10,888 bases of DNA, from IMG/VR virus record IMGVR_UViG_2529293142_000034, positions 1 through 10,888 of that record; one strand, 5' to 3'. The notes under the pieces were generated by a model. The model saw only the letters and a list, made by a program, of their open reading frames with translations. It was not told the origin of the DNA and ran no database searches. The DNA comes from a virus (Duplodnaviria > Heunggongvirae > Uroviricota > Caudoviricetes). Positions 1-10,888 of the stretch are shown here, in pieces; position 1 is the first letter of the stretch, and every line of letters begins with the position of its first letter. A program made the translations under genes and the position numbers.

Positions 1-1263
1 ATGAAGCTCACAGCCAGACAGGTCGAGACCGCAAAGCCAAAAGAAAAAACCTACAAAATGGCCGACGGCGGCGGTTTGTATCTCGAGATTTCGGCTAAGG
101 GCTCTAAATACTGGCGCATGAAATACAGACGCCCCTCAGACAAAAAAGAGGATCGCCTCGCTTTTGGTGTTTGGCCTACTGTGACGCTAGCTCAGGCAAG
201 AGTAAAGCGCGATGAGGCTAAAAAGCTGCTAGTGCAGGGCATTGACCCAAAAGCCGAACAGAAAGAAGTTCAGGCCGAGAATTCGGGGGCATATACATTC
301 GAAACCATTGCTCGTGAATGGCACGCCAGTAACAAGCGCTGGAGTGAAGACCATCGATCGCGCGTTCTTCGCTATCTTGAGCTTTATATATTCCCTCACA
401 TTGGTTCGTCCGACATTCGTCAGCTCAAGACTAGCCACCTATTAGCCCCGATTAAAAAAGTTGATGCAAGTGGTAAGCATGACGTCGCGCAGCGTCTTCA
501 GCAGCGTGTCACGGCTATCATGCGTTATGCAGTACAGAACGATTACATCGACTCAAATCCAGCCAGTGATATGGCTGGTGCTCTATCTACAACCAAGGTG
601 CGACATTACCCCGCTTTACCCTCTAGCCGATTCCCTGAGTTTCTTGCACGTCTTGCTGCATATCGTGGCCGTGTAATGACACGGATCGCGGTTGAGCTTT
701 CCTTACTAACTTTTGTGCGTTCCAGTGAGTTGCGTTTCGCGCGTTGGGATGAATTCGACTTCGATAAATCTCTATGGCGCATACCTGCAAAACGAAAAGA
801 AATTAAGGGTGTGCGTTATTCGTATCGTGGTATGAAGATGAAAGAGGAGCATATCGTTCCGCTGAGTCGTCAGGCGATGAATTTGTTAGACCAGTTAAAG
901 CAGATTAGTGGTGATAAAGAGCTGCTTTTCCCGGGGGATCATGACGCAACTAAGGTTATGAGTGAAAACACAGTGAATAGCGCATTGCGTGCGATGGGAT
1001 ATGACACAAAAACCGAAGTCTGCGGGCATGGGTTTAGGACGATGGCACGTGGTGCGCTGGGTGAGTCAGGGTTATGGAGTGATGATGCTATAGAACGCCA
1101 ACTGAGCCATTCAGAACGTAATAATGTTCGGGCTGCCTACATTCACACTTCAGAGCATTTAGATGAGCGTAGGCTGATGGTGCAGTGGTGGGCTGATTAT
1201 TTAGATATAAATAGAATGCAATATGTGACACCGTATGACTTCGCAAAGGAAGAAAATCTGTAG
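1..1263 (+). CDS. int: Tyrosine recombinase, P4-type integrase (420 aa)
   Basis: Intact 420-aa ORF starting at ATG position 1. N-terminal region (LYLEISAKGSKYWRMKYR...) is typical of P4-family integrases; C-terminal catalytic region has HGFRTMARG (His-x-x-Arg) and a downstream Tyr (VRAAYIHTSEH). Confidence 0.93.
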   Translation: MKLTARQVETAKPKEKTYKMADGGGLYLEISAKGSKYWRMKYRRPSDKKEDRLAFGVWPTVTLAQARVKRDEAKKLLVQGIDPKAEQKEVQAENSGAYTFETIAREWHASNKRWSEDHRSRVLRYLELYIFPHIGSSDIRQLKTSHLLAPIKKVDASGKHDVAQRLQQRVTAIMRYAVQNDYIDSNPASDMAGALSTTKVRHYPALPSSRFPEFLARLAAYRGRVMTRIAVELSLLTFVRSSELRFARWDEFDFDKSLWRIPAKRKEIKGVRYSYRGMKMKEEHIVPLSRQAMNLLDQLKQISGDKELLFPGDHDATKVMSENTVNSALRAMGYDTKTEVCGHGFRTMARGALGESGLWSDDAIERQLSHSERNNVRAAYIHTSEHLDERRLMVQWWADYLDINRMQYVTPYDFAKEENL

Positions 1264-1302
1264 AAATTATATGCTAACAATATATAAAACTCTTATAGTA
1301 AT

Positions 1303-1332
1303 AAACCATCCATTATTTTTAATGGATGGTTT
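1303..1332. terminator. Perfect 12-bp inverted repeat (AAACCATCCATT / AATGGATGGTTT) with a 6-nt loop, between the convergent int and cargo genes; putative bidirectional terminator
   Basis: Palindrome read directly at 1303-1314 and 1321-1332, between the int stop (1263) and the cargo gene stop (1362-1364). The stem is AT-rich and there is no clean U-tract, so terminator function is uncertain. Confidence 0.4.
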
Positions 1333-1361
1333 AAGATGAATTACTAGTTTTATGATTGAAT

Positions 1362-3657
1362 TTAAATTACTTCGACATTTTGATCATCATTAGCACTTTG
1401 CTGAACGTCGACATTAATGTCATCATCATTCGGCAGAGCCTTATAATATTCTCCCATCATCATTTTATAATGTGCAGCATTATCGCTGTATTCAAATATT
1501 TTCTGGAATATATTGAGATTTTTACTAACCGAGTTTTGGTCTAGAGCAATGTAAAGATCGTCATTTGAATGATGTGAACCGTCATTAATCCAAGATATCA
1601 ATGAATTAAATGCTATTTTTTCATCACCATCAAAATGTTTTTCGAGTTTCCATACATTAAATCCACCTAAAATTTTAAAGTAATTTTCAAGAATTCTTCT
1701 CATTGTGTTTTGTACTGTTGTGCAATTAATATCAGGGCGCCTTATCTCACTCCATAGTAAATCATATGAAGTTTTAATTGGATTGCATGCATGGCTTTCA
1801 ATGAACGATAATTTATCCTTTTTCCTAATGACCCAAAATGTTTCATCAGGACGAGCAGTATCTAAATTTCTATTCATATCGAAAGTTAACTCTTTATGAA
1901 AATAAATATTGTGAGTTAGGAAAAAGACCTGTTTTATACGGCCATTATTGTCTCTAATGTCTTTTATAAGTTTTTTCATTAATGAGCTAACTATAAACAG
2001 AATATCACTATCTAAACTTGATATAGGATCATCAAAGACAACTACTCGATCGTTCATTACACCAGATGTTGAATTACTTCCTTTGATGAGATTATAGAAA
2101 TATAGGAATGTGATAAAAGTTTTCTCACCCTCACTGAGTGTGCTTAGGGCATTATCACCATTTTCACGTACGATTCTATAGCTAAACGAATCGGATGTCG
2201 GTGCAAGGCTAAAATTTTTGAAGCCAAATGATAAAAGTATCTTATTTATAGCAGTGATTGTTGGCGTGACACTGGTTCTTTTAGATTCCTCGCTGGATAT
2301 ATTTTCAATGATATCATCTAATCTGACTTTGTCTTTTTCTAAACCCTTAATTAACCCTTCCTTAGCTCTATTTAACTGTTCCTTATCAGTATTATATTTA
2401 TTTATTTTATCAGCCAGTTCAACTTTAACTATATAATGCCATATTTCTTTTGTTAGTTTTTCTCTTTCCATGCTCCTGTTTTTGTATAGTTCATTATTTT
2501 CAAAAACTTGATTGTTAGCTGCAAGAATGATGTCTAATAATTCTTTGCCAGGCTCTAGAAGTCCTGTCATAGCGACAGGTGTACTTAATTCAGCCAATTT
2601 TCTTTTTGCTTCATCTATATTCCTTGATAATATTGATAGAATTAATTTGGATTTTGTGTTAAACAAATCCAAATCAAGGAAGGCATAGTTCCCTTCATTT
2701 ATTTTCGCAACATATTCATCAAATAAACGATACTCATGAGTATAATTTTTTAGTAATACATTAATGCTTTCTGTTTTTTCTAAATATTTTGTGTCAAAGT
2801 AACTTTCTAAATCCGATTTCAAACTACTGGGCGTATTTTGTTGGCAAAATGGACATTTGGTTTCAAGGTTATCATAGTACTTTATCCCTTCTTTAACCCA
2901 GTCACTGTTATCTAGTTGCCTTATGATTTCGGCAACGCTTGCATCTTCTTTTCCAAGAATTTTCTCTTTCCATATTTCATCGTCAACTATTTTTTTATGT
3001 TGCTAAAATTTGGTAAGGGAATTATATTGTGAACTGTTAGCGAGTCTGAGTAAACACTACCAGCCTTCGATATTAAGTATGGTAACTGGTGTAAATCTAC
3101 TTCTTTTGAATATAGCTCCTCTAATACCTTTGATTTGAATTTTTCCTGGCTGCTTCTTAAACCTTCAAATGCTTTATAGAAGTAATCATCATGTTTTTCT
3201 TTTGATTCCAGCAATCATTTTTGAAATCCAATTCAATTTTTTCAAGTTTTTGATAGATACCTAAATTTGCATTATCATTGTTATTTAAATTTCTTTTCTT
3301 GGAATCTATTGAGCTTTGCTCTTTATCCCTTTGTTGTATCAATTTGTCTATGTTATCTGTGAGCTCTTTTGTTTCTTCACCTAAAGTAAAAATACCTTTA
3401 ATACTATCTCCAGAAAAATTATTTACAACAAAATCCCTGTTGTAGACATAAGGAGTTAATTGATTGTTGTTTTTCCATTTAATCTGGCAAGTTGGAAAGC
3501 CTAAAGCATTATGAATTATTTTGCTAATTGTAGTTTTTCCAGCACCATTTGAGCCATATATGTAATTGATTTTCATTAGAGGCATCATATATTGAACGTC
3601 ATTTCCATATGAACCGGCTTGAGAAACGCTTATAGACTCTATCATTATCTTTTTCAT
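1362..3657 (-). CDS. Cargo gene: RloC/PrrC-like ABC-type ATPase with central CPFC motif and C-terminal putative nuclease domain (about 765 aa when joined); interrupted in this sequence by two homopolymer frameshifts
   Basis: Three adjacent minus-strand ORFs (3157-3657, 2987-3214, 1362-2822) join into one frame if one base is added at the T5 run 3194-3198 and at the T7 run 2990-2996. Walker A YGSNGAGKTT is at 3535-3558; reading the 1362-2822 frame upstream of its TTG start gives ...KYYDNLETKCPFCQQNTPSS (CPFC at 2844-2855). Signature-like LSEGEK, Walker B/D-loop VVVFDDPISSLD (about 2025-2045) and H-loop FFLTHN follow. Family assignment (AAA_13 / RloC-PrrC-like) is from motif recall, not a search. 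Confidence 0.7.
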
Positions 3658-3736
3658 CCTTTAGCTTTGTGTGAGGGGCGTGTCAGTCACGGATTACTAT
3701 TGCAGAATATCCATTTGTTTCAAGATATGTTTTTAT

Positions 3737-3780
3737 ACAGTGGTAAATAAACACAGTGGTAAATAAACACAGTGGTAATC
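3737..3780. repeat. Tandem direct repeat, 16-bp unit ACAGTGGTAAATAAAC x about 2.7, lying 80-125 bp upstream of the cargo gene start
   Basis: Exact copies at 3737-3752 and 3753-3768, partial third copy at 3769-3780 (ACAGTGGTAATC); a related CAAGTGGTTTAGTG follows near 3791. Confidence 0.8.
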
Positions 3781-3880
3781 ACAAAATATTCAAGTGGTTT
3801 AGTGTCATAGAAAGTGAGCATCTACGCAAGAATGTACTAACTCTGAGTTTACAAAATTAAATAATTAATATGCGCGCGCA

Positions 3881-3899
3881 GTGCTTTCCCCGCCTCGCC
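3881..3899 (-). other. cos site: P2/P4-type 19-nt cohesive-end sequence GGCGAGGCGGGGAAAGCAC
   Basis: Reverse complement of 3881-3899 is exactly GGCGAGGCGGGGAAAGCAC, followed on that strand by CTGCGCGCG..., matching my recollection of the P2/P4 genome left end. It sits between the cargo locus and psu, as expected for an integrated P4. Confidence 0.8.
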
Positions 3900-3999
3900 C
3901 GCCCGCTTTGCGGGGCGGTTTTAATGCAGTTGCACTGACACGCTCAGACCGCGCCGGGAATGGCGCGGTTTGCAGAAAATGAGGCAGGGAAACGCATGC

Positions 4000-4033
4000 A
4001 AAGCCATGCACCTTATCGATGCATGGCTTTTTT
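4000..4033. terminator. Intrinsic terminator-like hairpin (10-bp stem AAAGCCATGC / GCATGGCTTT, 11-nt loop) with a 3-prime T-tract on the plus strand and an A-tract on the other side; probably bidirectional, just downstream of psu
   Basis: Stem pairs 4000-4009 with 4021-4030, followed by TTT at 4031-4033 (T-run 4028-4033). Lies about 30 bp beyond the corrected psu stop (4064-4066). Confidence 0.5.
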
Positions 4034-4063
4034 CAGTAAAAACGGGCGGATTTTCGGGGAATT

Positions 4064-4635
4064 TTACACTGACTGACGTGATGCCAGTTGCGCACTTTTA
4101 CGCGAAAAAATCATGTTCTGCGCAGGGGTGAATTTTTCACGGCTGTCATCCACCGAAGCCGCGTCAGGCCTGAATCCGATGGTCGTTAAAATGTCGCTAT
4201 CCTGTGCGGAATAATTAATTTTTCCCCCTTCGCAAGCCAGGACAGAAGGGCTTCACGCAGGGCATCTGTGGCACGCTGTATGGCACAGTTTCGGGCAATG
4301 GCCGTCAGCTCACTGTATCCCATCAGCTCCGGTGCCAGTGCCGCCGCCAGTGCTGTGCCGTGCTGCTGCATAAAATCATTCAGCCGGTCGCGGATGCTGA
4401 TGTGCTGAACGGCTTCATGCGAACGAATATAACGACCGGCGGCCTGATTCACCTGCCATTTTCTGACTTCGATAATATTGCGTAATTCGTCCAGGCGACT
4501 GACGTTTCTGCCTTCCCCGGACAGAAGCCGCAGATATTCCTGTTCGGCCGCAGCCAGCTCATTTTTGCGTTGCAGCCATGCTGCTTTGTTATTCTGACAG
4601 GTGTCAAAGGCCTGCTGTAAGGCTGTGCTTTCCAT
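4064..4635 (-). CDS. psu: Psu polarity-suppression / capsid-decoration protein (190 aa after a one-base correction); C-terminus out of frame here because of a homopolymer indel
   Basis: ORF 4186-4635 (149 aa) ends ...LSWLAKGEKLIIPHRIATF*. The adjacent frame reads KINYSAQDSDILTTIGFRPDAASVDDSREKFTPAQNMIFSRKSAQLASRQSV* to a stop at 4064-4066. The join needs one extra T in the T5 run 4219-4223 and gives 139+51 = 190 aa, the length of P4 Psu as I recall it. Confidence 0.85.
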
Positions 4636-4707
4636 CGTTATCTCTTTCTCATCATGCTGAAGAATAAAATACGGTGTGCGGCGACGGCCGGTGTTAACCG
4701 GCAGCCC

Positions 4708-5208
4708 TCATTCCAGACGCAGCGAATATGATTGTGTTTTTAAGCGTACTGGCGGCAGTTCCTGTTTTTCATGCAGGCTTTCTGCCAGTTCGTCCGGCGT
4801 GACCGGGCGGACAATGAAACGGTTGATGGTCTGAAGCGTTTTAAACACCAGACCACAGCCCGGATCCGTGCACACATAAAAACGCTCGGTGACTTCCTGA
4901 GACAGACGCCTCGATGTTCTTGACAGTGCAAGGCCTTTACATCTCCGACAACAATATCCGGTAACAAGCATTCTTTTCGGGCGTTTCATACTGCCGGAGG
5001 CTGACGTCAGTGAATCGCGGTATCTCTGTTTGCCTGAAATGTATTCCATTCCTGAATCTTTACTGTCAGAGAAAAAGCTTTCACTCGCTTCAAATGTCGC
5101 AGAGCAATAAATATTCCGGCACTGTGCAATCATTATCTTGGTGCCATCGTCCATGAAATGTGCGCGGCGGGTGTGAGCAACATGTCCACACGACGGGCAG
5201 TAAATCAT
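4708..5208 (-). CDS. delta: Delta late-gene transcription activator with two tandem Ogr-type zinc-finger domains (166 aa)
   Basis: Intact 166-aa ORF with two C-x2-C-x22-C-x4-C modules (CPSCGHVAHTRRAHFMDDGTKIMIAQCRNIYC and CCRRCKGLALSRTSRRLSQEVTERFYVCTDPGC). Its ATG (5208-5206) overlaps the sid stop as ATGA. Confidence 0.9.
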   Translation of the reverse strand: MIYCPSCGHVAHTRRAHFMDDGTKIMIAQCRNIYCSATFEASESFFSDSKDSGMEYISGKQRYRDSLTSASGSMKRPKRMLVTGYCCRRCKGLALSRTSRRLSQEVTERFYVCTDPGCGLVFKTLQTINRFIVRPVTPDELAESLHEKQELPPVRLKTQSYSLRLE

Positions 5209-5938
5209 GACAGCAGTCCTCTGGCCTTAAGCTCTGCTCCCTGCTGGTCTATTTTGTCCTGCCACACCTTGCGCTGTGCCGGTGTGCCTGCCACCTCATA
5301 ATCCATGTGCGGGAGTGTTGCCGCTGACAGTCCGGTCAGCCGGAGAACCGGCTCACCGGTGAGGCTGATTTGCATCTGTTTTATTTTCTGTTCCAGCGAT
5401 GATTTCACCTGCTGCATGACAGCCTTTTCCGGTGCGACGTAGCCCTGATGGCCGGTGGCGTTGGCGAGCGGATTTTCCTGTACCAGAATGCTCAGATGCA
5501 TTGCCCGGACAAGCGCCTCACAGGTTTCATTCAGGGCGTGTTCCAGCTCATGCTCTGCATACAGACTCAGCAGGTGATGATGTGCCTTCCGGTAGGCGGT
5601 GGCCGTGCTGTCACACGCCCCTTTCAGGCGTTCACGTTCAAAATTCAGCACCACGGCCAGATTGTCATATTCCTGTACCAGCTCCCGGCGTGCCACGCGC
5701 TCAATGTGGCGCTGTTTCAGCTCGTCGCTCAGGACACCACCGGCTGCACGAAAGGCTGTGCGCCAGTCATCAGCGTCATTTCCGTCGGCCTGCGCCAGCG
5801 CATTTTTTCCTGCTCTGCCCGTTCAATGGCCTTGACGGTCTCATCCATCAGTCGGGCGTTCTCAAGGTGGGCGGCTCTGGCCTTTTCCAGTTGTGCCAGT
5901 GCGGGTTGCAGATATTCAGGGATGGTGTTGTCAGACAT
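5205..5938 (-). CDS. sid: Sid capsid size-determination (external scaffold) protein (244 aa after a one-base correction); split in this sequence by a homopolymer indel
   Basis: ORFs 5729-5956 and 5205-5696 join if one T is added to the T6 run 5803-5808: ...AIERAEQEK + NALAQADGNDADDWRTAFRAAGGVLSDELKQRHIER + VARRELV.... Starting from ATG 5938 (GAGGAG Shine-Dalgarno 7 nt upstream) gives 45+36+163 = 244 aa, the P4 Sid length as I recall it. Confidence 0.85.
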
Positions 5939-5972
5939 TTTCCGGCTCCTCGTCACTTCAGGTTAAGAAAAT

Positions 5973-6028
5973 TGTGACGTACACCGGACAACAACACGAC
6001 GCATTGCAGATGTGCCAGTCCTGACACA
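5973..6028 (-). promoter_or_regulatory. Candidate late promoter for sid-delta-psu with two TGT-N12-ACA activator sites of the Ogr/Delta type, centres 38 bp apart
   Basis: TGT-N12-ACA read at 5973-5990 and 6011-6028. If the distal site is centred near -55, the start of transcription falls about 5964 and the proximal site near -18, leaving a roughly 25-nt leader before sid ATG 5938. The -55/-18 arrangement is recalled for P4 late promoters. Confidence 0.55.
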
Positions 6029-6106
6029 GGAGACTCATCCTCAGACCGGCAAGCCAGGAAAAGGTCGCAGGAAAAACCGGCTTACTGTTTGTTTTTTTAT
6101 ATTTTA

Positions 6107-6220
6107 CTGTTCACCTCTGTTCACCATAAGAAAAAAGATAAGTAATACAGTAAGTTAAAGGGTGAACAATCGCAGTAATGACTGTTCACCGTCTGTTCAC
6201 CACTGTTCACCCGTTCATGG
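6107..6220. repeat. Phased 9-mer repeats CTGTTCACC (five direct copies, one inverted, one degenerate) in the divergent control region between sid and alpA
   Basis: Direct copies at 6107-6115, 6117-6125, 6182-6190, 6193-6201 and 6203-6211 (10-11 bp spacing within each cluster); inverted copy GGTGAACAA at 6161-6169; degenerate CGTTCATGG at 6212-6220. Existence is certain; function is inferred. Confidence 0.8.
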
Positions 6221-6295
6221 ACTTTTTGTGCTGTTTATTACTTTTTATTTTTATTAATTAACTGAAATAAATAAGAAAAACAATTTGTATTTCAC

Positions 6296-6301
6296 TATAA
6301 T
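6296..6301 (+). promoter_or_regulatory. Consensus -10 hexamer TATAAT facing alpA; candidate early promoter element
   Basis: TATAAT at 6296-6301 in an AT-rich stretch; no convincing -35 at 17 bp spacing, so this is weak. Confidence 0.25.
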
Positions 6302-6490
6302 TTTTTCCAGCTCCTTCCAGAGCGTTTTTAAAAGCTATCTGGCGCTGATGTGCAAAAAACACACAGCCATTGTAAGGCTGCCGGAACAAATCCCCCCTGT
6401 TGCGTCTGCCAAAAATATTCACAAAATAAAGCGCTACCCCGAAGCCGGACGGACTTATCCGGTGCTGTATGGACATTACGAGGTAGCCCG

Positions 6491-6760
6491 ATGCTAAGCC
6501 TGTTTTTTCTCCCCGTCTCCTGCCCCTGTGACGCCACTGATGCCGCTGCCGGACATCACGCAGGTAGCGTTTTTTTACGCTGCCGGAAGTGATGCACCTG
6601 TGCGGCCTGTCACGCTCGACCATCTATGAACTCATCCGTAAGGGGGAATTTCCGCCGCAGGTGAGTCTTGGCGGTAAAAAATGTGGCCTGGCTGCACTCT
6701 GAAATCACCGCATGGATGGCCGGGCGCATTGCCGGACGCAAACGGGGGTACGACGCATGA
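6491..6760 (+). CDS. alpA: AlpA-family (Vis/excisionase-like) helix-turn-helix regulator; reading frame broken twice at homopolymers in this sequence
   Basis: Core at 6580-6702 reads [34 protein letters not shown]...; removing one A from the A6 run 6676-6681 continues as ...[29 protein letters not shown] (stop 6758-6760), a close fit to the AlpA-family pattern. No in-frame start precedes the core unless one T is added to the T7 run 6570-6576, which joins it to ATG 6491 (GAGG 7 nt upstream). N-terminal boundary is uncertain. Confidence 0.65.
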
Positions 6761-7158
6761 TGATGCCCGCTCTGCAAAAAGTCCCTTTTTCTGGCTTGCC
6801 TTTTTCCGGCATTTGCGGATATAGTTTTTCTGCTGCCGCAAAATCGGCAGCCGGGCGTGGAAACCCGAGCAATTCACAGGCGGCATATGACGCGCCATGC
6901 GTCTTTTTTTGTGTCGCAATCAACGCCACAGAGCGCCAGATTATGGTGTGGTGTGTGGTCAGTCGTGCAGATGGCATTCCGTGCATCCTGCCCGCGTCCG
7001 CTCATTATGCCGCAGAGTCAATGGTAGCTCAGGCGGGGCAGCCTCCGGGCTGGCCGGTATCCTGTGAAGCCGGTATTTCCACCCCCGTCTGGGCTATCGC
7101 CATCGAGCGTGGAAACTCCGGCGATAGCGTTATTTGCTATTCACAGGAGGCTGCCATC

Positions 7159-7356
7159 ATGGCTACAACCCTCACCCCCTCACACCCTGAATTTGTCTTT
7201 GTGTTTGCGGCTGTCCGTCGCGCAGACCGTCATCCCCGTATCTGCATGCTTCGCACCGTCGCCGGTGATGAACGCAGTGCCCGCCGTTCCCTTGTCCGTG
7301 ACTATGTGCTCTCCCTTGCTGCCCGTCTGCCGGTGGTGGAGGTGTCCCGTGCGTAA
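7159..7356 (+). CDS. Small early protein (65 aa), possibly an Icd-like cell-division inhibitor
   Basis: ATG 7159 preceded by AGGAGG at 7145-7150 (8-nt spacer); sequence [65 protein letters not shown]. The stop overlaps the next gene start. The Icd-like label is from weak recall of prophage annotations. The same frame is open upstream to 6757, so the true start could lie further upstream. Confidence 0.4.
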
Positions 7357-7636
7357 TAAAAAAGCCCCTCAGACCGTCTCAGCGCGTCATGACGCCCGTG
7401 AACACCTCAGCATTGAGGCTTACCATAAGCTCAACCGCGCCAGCGCCGTATCCCAGTTTGTTGGGGGTGATTTGATTCACCGTGAACTCTCCGGCCTGCA
7501 TCAGCTCTACATTCCGCATATTTTCAGCTACCTGAATGAAGATATTGATTTTGTGCTGAATGAGCTGAAAGCCAAAGGCCTGTGCCGCGATTTTCTCGCC
7601 CAGCAGAAAGACCGGGGAGACAGGACGCATGTTTGA
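7349..7636 (+). CDS. Small early protein (95 aa), possibly the epsilon (derepression) homologue
   Basis: GTG 7349 with GGAGG at 7338-7342; no in-frame ATG exists downstream, so the GTG start is required. It overlaps the upstream stop (GTGCGTAA) and the downstream start (ATGTTTGA). The epsilon assignment is by position and size only. Confidence 0.5.
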
Positions 7637-8084
7637 TTTTCCCCAGCCCGGTGAGATTTACCGTTCTGCCGGTTTTCCCGATGTGGCCGTGGTCGGCATT
7701 CTGGAAGACGGTATTCCGTGGGAAATGCCGTACCGCTGCCCGGACATTGTCTGGAACCCGTACCGCCGTAAATTCAGTATCCTTGTGCGTATCCTCGCTG
7801 ACGGGCGCACCACAGACATCCCGCTGGGGCGTTTTCTGCGGGAATTTACCTGTGACCGTCCTGACCTGTTTAAACGCAGCCCCGTAAACCGGCATGCGGT
7901 ACTGAAAGAAATGGCCGGAGACCCGGAATTACAGAAATGGCGGGAGAAATATCTGGATATTTACCCGCAGGCCCCTGTTCCGGTCAGCCGGGCGGCACCG
8001 GTGGCGCGGGAATGGCGGGAAATTCCCCGCACGGAGCCTGACCCGGAAATCACCCCGGATAACAGTTACCGCAATTATCTGTAA
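7629..8084 (+). CDS. Conserved early-operon protein, 151 aa (orf151-like)
   Basis: Intact ORF whose ATG overlaps the stop of the preceding gene; its size and position before alpha match the P4 left-operon layout as I recall it. Function unknown. Confidence 0.65.
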   Translation: MFDFPQPGEIYRSAGFPDVAVVGILEDGIPWEMPYRCPDIVWNPYRRKFSILVRILADGRTTDIPLGRFLREFTCDRPDLFKRSPVNRHAVLKEMAGDPELQKWREKYLDIYPQAPVPVSRAAPVAREWREIPRTEPDPEITPDNSYRNYL

Positions 8085-8219
8085 TTAAAAAACGACCCCC
8101 GAAAAATTAAATGTGCGTATTCGCGCAGGGATACGCACGTCTTCAGGAGACGCAGATATGCCTTATCAGTTAATGCAACCGGCACGGAATGCAGTCATCT
8201 GTCACAGGGAGGAAAACAA

Positions 8220-8540
8220 ATGAAAACACCCTTACCGCCCGTCTTACGCGCTGCCCTTTACCGTCGCGCTGTCGCCTGTGCCTGGCTGACCGTGTGCGAA
8301 CGTCAGCACCGCTACCCGCATCTCACCCTTGAGTCACTGGAGGCGGCCATCGCCGCTGAGCTGGAAGGCTTTTATCTGCGCCAGCACGGTGAGGAAAAAG
8401 GGCGTCAGATAGCCTGTGCCCTGCTGGAAGATTTAATGGAATCCGGCCCCCTGAAGGCCGCGCCGTCGCTGTCCTTTCTCGGGCTGGTTGTGATGGATGA
8501 ACTCTGTGCCCGTCACATAAAAGCGCCGGTACTGCACTGA
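8220..8540 (+). CDS. Conserved early-operon protein, 106 aa (orf106-like)
   Basis: Intact ORF with GGGAGG upstream of ATG 8220; it ends 14 bp before the alpha start. Function unknown. Confidence 0.65.
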
Positions 8541-8554
8541 AGGAGAACAACACC

Positions 8555-10888
8555 ATGAAAATGAACGTAACCGCCACCGTCAGCCATGCACTCGGCCACT
8601 GGCCGCGTATCCTCCCGGCGCTGGGGATTCAGGTGCTGAAGAACCGTCATCAGCCCTGTCCGGTCTGTGGCGGGAGTGACCGCTTCCGTTTTGATGACAG
8701 GGAGGGGCGCGGCACCTGGTACTGCAATCAGTGTGGTGCCGGTGACGGCCTGAAACTGGTTGAAAAGGTGTTTGGTGTTTCCCCGTCCGATGCGGCCGCA
8801 AAGGTGGCTGCCGTGACCGGCAGCCTGCCCCCGGCTGACCCGGCAGTGACGGCTGCCGCCGGTGCTGAAACAGACGCTGCCCGGAAGAACGCCGCCGCAC
8901 TGGCACAAACCCTGATGGCGAAAACCCGTCCCGGAACCGGTAACGCCTACCTGACCCGCAAGGGCTTTCCCGGCCGGGAATGCCGGATGCTGACCGGCAC
9001 ACACAGAGCCGGTGGCGTGAGCTGGCGTGCCGGTGACCTTGTGGTGCCACTGTATGACGACAGCGGCGAACTGGTTAACCTTCAGTTAATCAGTGCTGAC
9101 GGCCGTAAGCGCACCCTGAAAGGCGGACAGGTCAGGGGCACCTGTCACACCCTTGAAGGACAGAATCAGGCCGGAAAACGTCTGTGGATAGCGGAGGGAT
9201 ACGCGACCGCACTTACCGTGCATCACCTGACCGGTGAAACGGTGATGGTGGCGCTTTCTTCCGTGAATCTCCTTTCTCTGGCCAGCCTTGCCCGGCAGAA
9301 GCATCCGGCCTGTCAGATTGTCCTTGCTGCTGACCGTGACCTCAGCGGTGACGGCCAGAAAAAAGCCGCCGCAGCCGCAGATGCGTGTGAAGGTGTTGTT
9401 GCCCTGCCGCCGGTCTTCGGTGACTGGAATGATGCCTTCACGCAGTACGGCGGGGAAGCCACCCGTAAGGCCATTTATGATGCCATCCGGCCACCGGCTG
9501 AAAGCCCGTTCGACACCATGAGCGAAGCGGAGTTTTCCGCCATGAGTACCAGCGAAAAGGCCATGCGTATCTATGAGCATTACGGCGAGGCGCTCGCGGT
9601 CGATGCCAACGGCCAGCTTCTGTCCCGCTATGAAAATGGTGTCTGGAAGGTGCTGCCGCCACAGGACTTTGCCCGGGATGTGGCCGGGCTGTTTCAGCGT
9701 CTGCGCGCGCCGTTCTCCTCCGGGAAGGTGGCCTCCGTGGTGGACACCCTGAAGCTGATTATTCCGCAGCAGGAAGCCCCCTCCCGCCGCCTGATTGGCT
9801 TTCGTAACGGCGTGCTCGACACGCAGAACGGCACGTTCCACCCGCACAGTCCGTCACACTGGATGCGCACCCTGTGTGATGTGGATTTCACCCCGCCAGT
9901 GGAAGGGGAAACGCTGGAAACCCACGCCCCCGCGTTCTGGCGCTGGCTTGACCGTGCCGCCGGTGGCCGTGCGGAAAAACGCGACGTGATTCTGGCCGCA
10001 CTGTTTATGGTGCTGGCAAACCGCTACGACTGGCAGCTCTTTCTGGAGGTGACCGGTCCCGGCGGCAGCGGCAAAAGTATCATGGCCGAAATAGCCACCC
10101 TGCTGGCCGGGGAGGATAACGCCACATCGGCCACCATTGAGACGCTGGAATCCCCGCGTGAACGTGCCGCGTTAACTGGCTTCTCACTGATACGCCTGCC
10201 GGACCAGGAAAAATGGAGCGGCGACGGTGCCGGACTCAAGGCCATCACCGGCGGCGATGCGGTGTCCGTTGACCCGAAATACCGGGATGCGTACTCCACG
10301 CACATCCCGGCGGTGATTCTGGCCGTGAACAATAACCCGATGCGCTTCACCGACCGCAGCGGCGGCGTGTCACGCCGGCGGGTGATTATTCACTTCCCTG
10401 AACAGATAGCCCCGCAGGAGCGCGACCCGCAGCTTAAGGACAAAATCACCCGCGAGCTGGCGGTCATCGTGCGTCACCTGATGCAGAAATTCAGCGACCC
10501 GATGCTCGCCCGGTCACTGCTTCAGTCCCAGCAAAACTCAGACGAGGCGCTGAACATCAAACGGGATGCCGACCCGACGTTTGATTTTATCGGCTATCTG
10601 GAAACCCTGCCGCAGACCAGCGGCATGTATATGGGGAACGCCAGTATCATCCCGCGCAATTACCGTAAATACCTCTATCACGCCTATCTGGCCTACATGG
10701 AGGCAAACGGCTACCGGAACGTACTCAGTCTGAAAATGTTCGGGCTGGGGCTGCCGGTGATGCTGAAGGAATACGGACTGAATTACGAGAAGCGCCATAC
10801 CAAACAGGGGATACAGACCAACCTGACGCTGAAAGAGGAAAGCTACGGCGACTGGCTGCCAAAATGTGACGACCCTGCAACAACCTGA
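8555..10888 (+). CDS. alpha: Alpha protein: P4-type primase/helicase (zinc finger + Toprim primase + D5-like NTPase), 777 aa, complete
   Basis: AGGAG 9 nt upstream of ATG 8555. N-terminal zinc-binding motif CPVCGGSDRFRFDD...CNQCG, Toprim-like acidic region (EGYATAL ... LAADRDLSGDG) and Walker A GPGGSGKS at 10055-10078. The 777-aa length equals that of P4 alpha as I recall it. Confidence 0.93.
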   Translation: MKMNVTATVSHALGHWPRILPALGIQVLKNRHQPCPVCGGSDRFRFDDREGRGTWYCNQCGAGDGLKLVEKVFGVSPSDAAAKVAAVTGSLPPADPAVTAAAGAETDAARKNAAALAQTLMAKTRPGTGNAYLTRKGFPGRECRMLTGTHRAGGVSWRAGDLVVPLYDDSGELVNLQLISADGRKRTLKGGQVRGTCHTLEGQNQAGKRLWIAEGYATALTVHHLTGETVMVALSSVNLLSLASLARQKHPACQIVLAADRDLSGDGQKKAAAAADACEGVVALPPVFGDWNDAFTQYGGEATRKAIYDAIRPPAESPFDTMSEAEFSAMSTSEKAMRIYEHYGEALAVDANGQLLSRYENGVWKVLPPQDFARDVAGLFQRLRAPFSSGKVASVVDTLKLIIPQQEAPSRRLIGFRNGVLDTQNGTFHPHSPSHWMRTLCDVDFTPPVEGETLETHAPAFWRWLDRAAGGRAEKRDVILAALFMVLANRYDWQLFLEVTGPGGSGKSIMAEIATLLAGEDNATSATIETLESPRERAALTGFSLIRLPDQEKWSGDGAGLKAITGGDAVSVDPKYRDAYSTHIPAVILAVNNNPMRFTDRSGGVSRRRVIIHFPEQIAPQERDPQLKDKITRELAVIVRHLMQKFSDPMLARSLLQSQQNSDEALNIKRDADPTFDFIGYLETLPQTSGMYMGNASIIPRNYRKYLYHAYLAYMEANGYRNVLSLKMFGLGLPVMLKEYGLNYEKRHTKQGIQTNLTLKEESYGDWLPKCDDPATT

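Follow-up and report, generated by a model that had tools for sequence, protein, structure and literature searches.

Why should a short sequence just upstream of the single cargo gene of a phage satellite be present in several head-to-tail copies, and does the number of these copies have any meaning for the expression of that gene? The question arises from a window of 10,888 nt (the whole stretch of DNA analysed, positions 1 to 10,888 of the IMG/VR virus record IMGVR_UViG_2529293142_000034), in which an earlier note, made from the sequence alone, had described about 2.7 tandem copies of a 16-bp unit in the interval between cos and the cargo gene, with a related sequence nearby, and had offered three explanations for them, namely an operator, an UP-like promoter element or a product of slippage. 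In our view the array is probably a slippage-generated VNTR that arose from the distal of two boxes, spaced 16 bp apart, upstream of the sigma-70 promoter of an RloC gene.

The DNA analysed is a satellite prophage of the P4 type, and in its annotated relatives the gene order is tRNA-Leu, int, a gene labelled ‘AAA family ATPase’, psu, ogr/delta and sid, on to the primase. On the psu side, positions 3900–4640 match the right end of phage P4 at 98.8% identity; the end of the P4 genome maps to 3899/3900, P4 position 1 corresponding to 3899, which therefore fixes the cohesive end as given in the table below. Homology of the backbone to other P4-like elements starts at about 3858, two database matches covering 3858–3900 only, and the array is 103–162 bp away from the cohesive end. 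Its location between cos and the cargo gene is thus borne out, both by the alignment of the P4 end and by a cargo start at 3645. Variable cargo between int and cos-psu-delta-sid, beside the tRNA attachment site, is what is found here, and in P4-like satellites the stretch from psu/cos to int is a known defence hotspot (Rousset et al., 2022, PMC9122126; PMC13586616).

Other elements of the satellite can be recognized in the same DNA. The P4 CI immunity RNA region is identified by Rfam, and the replication repeats of the TGTTCACC type (tandem CTGTTCACC-type) correspond to the type I, alpha-protein repeats of the P4 ori and are separate from, and unrelated to, the array of the cargo promoter. GC-rich hairpins are present around cos, at 3899–3918 and 4110–4150 (minus strand): one is formed by CCGCCCGCTTTGCGGGGCGG, with a run of T after it on the plus strand; the other, GCCATGCA...TGCATGGC followed by TTTG, stands after psu on the minus strand and could end the sid-delta-psu late transcript ahead of the cargo gene.

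Table 1. Features of the window around the tandem array and elsewhere in the satellite.
Feature	Position	Strand	Description and basis
Integrase gene	1..1263	+	
Cargo gene, predicted RloC-type anticodon nuclease	1362..3645	-	ABC ATPase with zinc-hook coiled coil and C-terminal ACNase
Shine-Dalgarno sequence	3657..3662	-	AAAGGA, 3662-3657
Predicted sigma-70 promoter	3696..3723	-	-35 TTGAAA 3723-3718; 16-nt spacer; -10 AATAGT 3701-3696, TG 3704-3703
Proximal box and spacer CTGTATAAAAACATATC	3724..3740	-	Stops 1 nt short of the -35; shares the array's first 4 nt
16-bp tandem array	3737..3778	- (gene direction)	2.6 perfect copies of plus-strand ACAGTGGTAAATAAAC; gene-direction reading GTTTATTTACCACTGT
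Block TGTGATTA (gene direction)	3776..3783	-	Adjoins the array; common to Serratia, L124 and L009 orthologues (anchored promoter alignment)
Degenerate related sequence CAAGTGGTT (gene direction AACCACTTG)	3791..3799	-	Sequence and orthologue alignment
P4-type cos cohesive end	3881..3899	.	GGCGAGGCGGGGAAAGCAC on the minus strand; alignment to the ends of P4 NC_001609/X51522
P4 ori type I repeats	6107..6125 and 6180..6211		TGTTCACC repeats
P4 CI immunity RNA region	6819..7104		Rfam
c4-a1b1	6819..6871		Rfam
isrK	6832..6909		Rfam
C4 antisense RNA	7017..7104		Rfam, 76.6 bits

RloC is defined by the motifs of ABC ATPases, a coiled-coil insert with a CX2C zinc hook and a C-terminal Arg-X3-Glu-X36-52-(Ser)His triad (PMC2610378). 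The cargo protein, which matches Pfam AAA_13 (E = 2.8e-159) and PADLOC PDC-S06 (E = 6e-259), conforms to this definition, with Walker A at G31-T39, C265-P-F-C268 and R650-x3-E654-x37-S691-H692, all invariant in 14 homologues, and it is a predicted anticodon nuclease; homologues are labelled ‘wobble nucleotide-excising tRNase’ in some sources. The intact protein, of 761 aa, is found in the elements of WL164 and BEN5202, with respect to which the gene in the window is broken into three ORFs by single-base deletions at about 2989 and 3193. Compared with near-identical relatives the window carries four such deletions, the other two, at about 4218 and 4665, falling in psu, which is cut to 149 aa; the relative L004 is otherwise 99.9% identical. 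The pattern suggests indel errors of sequencing or assembly, or else an early decay of the element. In RM10740 an IS3-family element (L001 3073–4280) lies inside the RloC gene, and the intergenic region is 100% identical to that of the window. The translation start is assigned to the ATG at 3645 (MIESISV...) in orthologues and in the RefSeq annotation, and the first ATG of the ORF, at 3657, is missing in several orthologues. The array, which had been placed 80–125 bp upstream of the start codon, lies at that distance from the first ATG, but at 92–135 nt from the likely start at 3645.

The repeat itself is real and far above chance expectation. Tandem Repeats Finder reports a period of 16 with 100% matches and a score of 84 at 3737–3778, and a separate repeat search delimits copies at 3737–3752 and 3753–3768, plus a third at 3769–3784 with a 75% match. 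The longest perfect self-match of the window at offsets 7–40 measures 26 nt, at offset 16 and starting from 3737; in 100 shuffled windows preserving dinucleotides the corresponding value had a mean of 9.0 and a maximum of 12. The 2.6 perfect copies agree with the earlier count, and the related sequence CAAGTGGTT is also present, as had been stated; it is kept in the Serratia sister lineage, and its equivalent in more distant orthologues is CTGAAC. Read in the direction of the gene, the array contains three CCACTGT boxes (CTGTGT at 3772-3767, CTGTGT at 3756-3751 and CTGTAT at 3740-3735), i.e., one box per repeat unit, of sequence TTACCACTGT(G/A)T and general form TTAC-N2-CTGT-R-T. The pattern TTACCACTGTRT has exactly three matches in the window, all within the array, and a pattern search of the satellite backbone in the window detected no repetition of the box above chance. 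A sequence identical to the distal box of Serratia aquatilis, TTATCGCTGTAT, occurs at 1480–1491 on the plus strand, in the 3′ end of the cargo ORF and on the opposite strand; about one match of this type, with two mismatches, is expected by chance in the window. The order on the minus strand is AACCACTTGAATATTT TGTGATTA CCACTGTGTTTATTTA CCACTGTGTTTATTTA CCACTGTATAAAAACATATC TTGAAA CAAATGGATATTCTGC AATAGT ...AAAGGA-N11-ATG, and each unit added takes the block TGTGATTA 16 bp farther from the promoter.

The earlier note had regarded the repeat as the only obvious regulatory candidate for the cargo gene, which proved wrong, since the repeat is separated from the gene by a conserved sigma-70-like promoter (3723-3696). 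This promoter, TTGAAA-N16-TGcAATAGT, scores nine matches out of 12 plus the TG in a promoter scan, and its sequence, TTGAAACAAAT...TTCTGYAATAGT, is conserved in orthologous satellites. In the direction of the gene the array is directly upstream of the -35, at about -48 to -91 from the inferred transcription start, the last CTGTAT starting exactly 17 nt before the -35; the region of this proximal box is the most conserved upstream element. The scan of the intergenic region gives the TTGAAA/AATAGT site alone, and divergent or extra promoters created by the units were rejected on this ground; a structured RNA was likewise rejected because Rfam has no match in 3600–3900.

The origin of the 16-bp period becomes clear when the same interval is compared in related satellites. 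In each of five lineages whose RloC is 78 to >90% identical, the CTGTAT boxes number exactly two and are spaced by 16 bp: Serratia bockelmannii/marcescens (P0122; RloC in the same 90% cluster), with distal CTGTATTTATTTACAA and proximal CTGTATAAAAACATAC, and four lineages in which the proximal box begins CTGTAT and the distal box is CTGTATGCCTTTACAA (L124, RloC 85%), CTGTATGTCTTTACAC (L121, 82%), CTGTATGTATTCACAA (Serratia aquatilis, L009, 84%) or CTGTATACCTCTACAA (a second E. coli lineage, L006, 78%). The ancestral layout in these five is TGTGATTA-[CTGTAT-N10]-[CTGTATAAAAACATAYC]-TTGAAA, although the block TGTGATTA itself is not kept in L006, nor in the P2 clade described below. The 16-bp periodicity is therefore older than the perfect array. 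With respect to the Serratia sister, the distal box of E. coli has two substitutions, CTGTAT>CTGTGT and ACAA>ACCA, which yield a 10-bp direct repeat without mismatch, TTACCACTGT, with a spacing of 16 bp; slipped-strand duplication and deletion would readily act on such a repeat.

The proximal box is conserved well beyond these close relatives. CTGTA(T/C) stands exactly 17 nt before TTGNAA in 16 RloC lineages, including P2-like phages (loci L157, L159, L160, L093 and L095), in which RloC homologues 49–55% identical occupy the P2-like defence hotspot, flanked by gpA and the portal gene and beside the P2 cos. In these, as in a 61% homologue in another P4-like element, the arrangement is (T)TAC(AG)-CTGTA(T/C)-N11-TTGNAA with the spacing unchanged, and the rest of the leader cannot be aligned. 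The distal box is missing in the P2-type loci L099, L101 and L160 and in L125, and from this comparison it appears dispensable in some contexts. The earlier note had proposed comparing the interval in satellites with the same or with different cargo: satellites with the same cargo keep the proximal box, and no such motif was found in P4 itself, which carries gop, or in a P4-like element with SEC-C cargo. A scan of IMG/VR with CTGTATAAANNNNCANNTTGWAA gave 27 matches, every cos-linked one being an RloC promoter and the others resembling chance matches. Among genome contigs with RloC homologues, the scan gave one close relative, Serratia aquatilis; the distant homologues there (at most 45% identity), which lie outside P2 and P4, are without the motif. 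The motif would thus seem to belong to the cargo and to travel with RloC between P2-like helpers and P4-like satellites; among the 78–90% lineages, its conservation could in part reflect recent common ancestry rather than constraint.

In E. coli the number of boxes is not fixed. Only three of 5,426 complete E. coli genomes contain the intergenic region, and further copies were recovered from draft genomes, read-set assemblies and metagenomes, giving 12 independent E. coli records, the window included, that show hardly any other difference in this region. Two of them (L127 and L283) have two boxes (1.6 units), seven (the window, RM10740 (L001), L004, L005, L282, L284 and L285) have three and three (WL164, BEN5202 (L002, L003) and L126) have four; the WL164 satellite is degraded, its delta and primase genes being truncated. 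The alleles differ by exact 16-bp indels, and the cargo-side flank (3194–3860, about 650 bp) has only five SNPs among seven sequences. The copy number conflicts with the haplotypes of the cos/psu side: within haplotype B, RM10740 has three boxes and WL164 and L126 four, and among records with an A-like cos-proximal haplotype, L127 has two and the window and L004 three. The number of boxes must therefore have changed independently at least two to three times. An artefact of assembly was rejected because 11 independent records carry the repeat. Perfect head-to-tail units and whole-unit differences that are homoplasious on the flanking haplotypes are the marks of a slippage-type VNTR, and the slippage option among the three original explanations finds direct support in the occurrence of two, three and four units in near-identical elements. 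The earlier note had also held that copy number varying freely among otherwise identical elements, with no effect on expression, would speak against a regulatory role; variation in copy number among such elements, from two to four boxes, was found.

A mechanism that accommodates these data can be outlined as follows. The 10-bp repeats would allow 16-bp units to be gained or lost, by replication slippage or by unequal exchange, and the boxes would be candidate sites for a DNA-binding factor acting at about -40 to -70, the proximal one, beside the -35, presumably being the functionally important one. The expanded unit of E. coli is a mutated box, with CTGTGT where CTGTAT is otherwise invariant, and the added CTGTGT copies may be poor or non-functional sites. 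Each additional distal unit would contribute a weak copy of the site and move the upstream DNA by about 1.5 helical turns, at most tuning promoter strength and perhaps remaining nearly neutral; judging from sequence comparisons, these units probably either modulate expression or are close to neutral, and any effect of copy number on expression is conjecture. The operator option finds partial support: the proximal box keeps a constant distance of 17 nt to the -35 in 16 lineages, with a second copy 16 bp upstream in all five close lineages, but the unit that has expanded is the mutated box and no regulator can be assigned by motif comparisons.

If the boxes are operators, LexA has to be considered, although we regard it as unlikely that they are head-to-tail LexA operators multiplied beside the -35, which would place RloC under DNA-damage control. 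The unit is as long as the core of a LexA box, 16 bp, and its conserved half is an exact LexA half-site, CTGTAT; the proximal boxes of the P2 clade retain CA at positions 14–15, and a dimer bound to the proximal box, which abuts the -35, could block it. RloC activity, moreover, is tied to DNA breaks (PMC3874168). The difficulty lies in the second half of the box. The near-invariant G at position 16 is found in none of 16 lineages, the scan with the CAG version has no cos-linked match among the 120 matches listed, the half-sites of some distal boxes are incorrectly spaced (CTG-N9-CAG in L095 and L103), and direct repeats of a half-site are unsuited to a dimer that binds a dyad. Scores were calculated with a provisional position weight matrix made from about 26 E. 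coli LexA sites, the random control set consisting of A/T-rich 100-mers: with this matrix, known sites reach 13.8–24.3 bits and the random 99th percentile is 10.5, to be compared with only 3.0 for the repeat unit of the window (7.7 on the opposite strand), 9.6 for its proximal box and about 7–14 for proximal boxes overall. The distal boxes of the outgroups, CTGTAT-N6-TACAA, are one base from CTGT-N8-ACAG and score 11–14 bits with the same matrix, the best of them, at 13.1–13.8, being borderline with respect to the known ones. Neither the unit of the window, CTGTGTTTATTTACCA, nor its proximal box, CTGTATAAAAACATAT, contains the dyad CTGT-N8-ACAG, their likeness to it being almost all in the CTGTAT half, and with scores below the range of known sites and G16 absent in all 16 lineages a LexA box was rejected for the window. 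A DinI-like protein (PF06183, E = 1e-22), SOS-related, is encoded at 136–441 of L095, a P2-like phage contig, about 1 kb upstream of RloC and near LexA-like boxes. Repeats upstream of promoters are known to switch expression in other bacteria, e.g., the TAAA tract of nadA in Neisseria, and with this precedent the array might be a contingency switch, in which steps of 16 bp (about 1.5 turns) rephase upstream activator or bending sites such as TGTGATTA and create heritable variation in the level of a toxic nuclease of the abortive-infection type. At least two to three independent changes of copy number in almost identical elements, the displacement of the conserved block TGTGATTA by the array and a cargo that is a potentially self-toxic tRNase (PMC2610378) are in line with such a switch; yet only three states are seen, one of them dominant (seven of 12 records), the mutation rate of a 16-bp unit at two to four copies is far below that of classical simple-sequence contingency loci, and TGTGATTA is not kept in L006 or in the P2 clade, all of which makes the switch quite unlikely.

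The A/T-rich repeat might instead enhance transcription in the manner of an UP element or of curved DNA, through contacts with the alpha C-terminal domains of RNA polymerase. The consensus of the UP element, at -59 to -38, comprises a distal AWWWWWTTTTT and a proximal AAAAAARNR subsite, and the non-repeated sequence AAAAACATA, just upstream of the -35 at about -46 to -38, matches the latter in eight of nine positions (by eye). The repeated units do not follow it: they lie upstream of about -53 and do not match the distal subsite, only a minority of positions agreeing by eye, their invariant bases are CTGTA with no A/T tract pattern, and with a period of 16 bp successive units fall on opposite faces of the helix, where bends would not be additive. 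The UP-like explanation thus suits the unrepeated segment and, as an account of the array, is very unlikely. Proximity to cos, the direct repeats that P4 has at ori and crr and a plus-strand sequence, ATAAACACA, that matches the P2 cox-box consensus in eight of nine positions by eye could speak for a role of the repeat in the machinery of the satellite, as a recognition sequence for cos/terminase, alpha-protein iterons, or sites for Ogr/Delta or for Int/Vis/Cox. Set against these, the homology of the backbone ends at about 3858, the motif is absent from P4 and from the other cargo type and does not recur in the backbone of the window above chance, TGT-N12-ACA is present in none of 15 promoters tested, the alpha-binding repeats are TGTTCACC and map elsewhere (6107–6211), and the box also accompanies RloC in P2-like phages, so that it travels with the cargo. 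A backbone function appears largely excluded, and we consider it most improbable.

Individual regulators fared no better. P2/P4 late promoters activated by Ogr/Delta have a TGT-N12-ACA dyad near -55 and a poor -35; a regular-expression search of the 15 orthologous promoters gave no such dyad, the -35 is a good TTGAAA, and this class was rejected. The array is without the TGTTCACC octamer of P4 alpha-protein iterons. In comparisons with consensus sequences by eye, CRP was rejected as only a TGTGA half-site is present, the cox-box match of eight positions out of nine is at chance level, and none of CpxR, PhoP, ArcA, TyrR, ArgR, Fur and MarA is compatible with the conserved columns or with a spacing of 16 bp. 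A literature search for the strings TACAGCTGTA, ACAGCTGTAT and CAGCTGTATAAA returned irrelevant papers only, and the RloC papers PMC2610378 and PMC3874168 contain nothing on this promoter or on the repeat.

We therefore prefer to read the array as a VNTR that slippage produced from the distal box, and as such it is a familiar and ordinary kind of polymorphism: taken by themselves, short VNTRs ahead of promoters are common and well understood. The interest of the locus would lie in the boxes, which, if they are true operators, offer a handle on the transcriptional control of RloC defence genes borne by satellites and phages. The hotspot defence systems were cloned with their ‘native promoters’ (PMC9122126; PMC13586616), and current surveys of the hotspot leave the control of the RloC promoter aside; searched by term, the text of these two papers has no mention of RloC, of PDC-S06 or of a tandem repeat in a hotspot promoter. 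The natural alleles with two, three and four units form a ready test series, and the fact that one promoter motif goes with RloC in P2-like helpers as well as in P4-like satellites supports the view that cargo moves with its own regulatory DNA. A bolder extension, in which the CTGTAT-box promoter is a portable RloC module that senses, for instance, DNA damage or helper induction through a factor with a LexA-like half-site, and its expansion in E. coli is a heritable rheostat or contingency switch for a self-toxic nuclease, is distinctly unlikely.

Several known systems help to place the array. The architecture of the window is identical to that of the P4-like satellite defence hotspot (PMC9122126; PMC13586616). 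Like the type I repeats of the P4 ori and crr and the operators of P2 Cox and C repressor, which are protein-binding arrays, it consists of short direct repeats in a P2/P4 element, but it differs from the ori/crr repeats (TGTTCACC, 6107–6211) in sequence, location and backbone conservation, being cargo-specific and absent from P4. Tandem or abutting LexA boxes reportedly occur, e.g., in colicin operons and in the lexA and recN promoters (Lewis 1994; Fernandez de Henestrosa 2000); with these the array shares the CTGTAT half-site, the length of 16 bp, the head-to-tail arrangement and a last box touching the -35, whereas its boxes never have the CAG second half and are direct repeats rather than dyads, and the units of the window score far lower. 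The VNTRs in the promoters of genes for surface proteins of Neisseria and Haemophilus are likewise made of perfect head-to-tail units by the core promoter, with differences in copy number among otherwise identical strains and the same origin by strand slippage. In comparison with them, the unit here is long (16 bp) and present in two to four copies, so that switching should be rare, and it derives from a pre-existing two-site promoter element in the defence cargo of a phage satellite.
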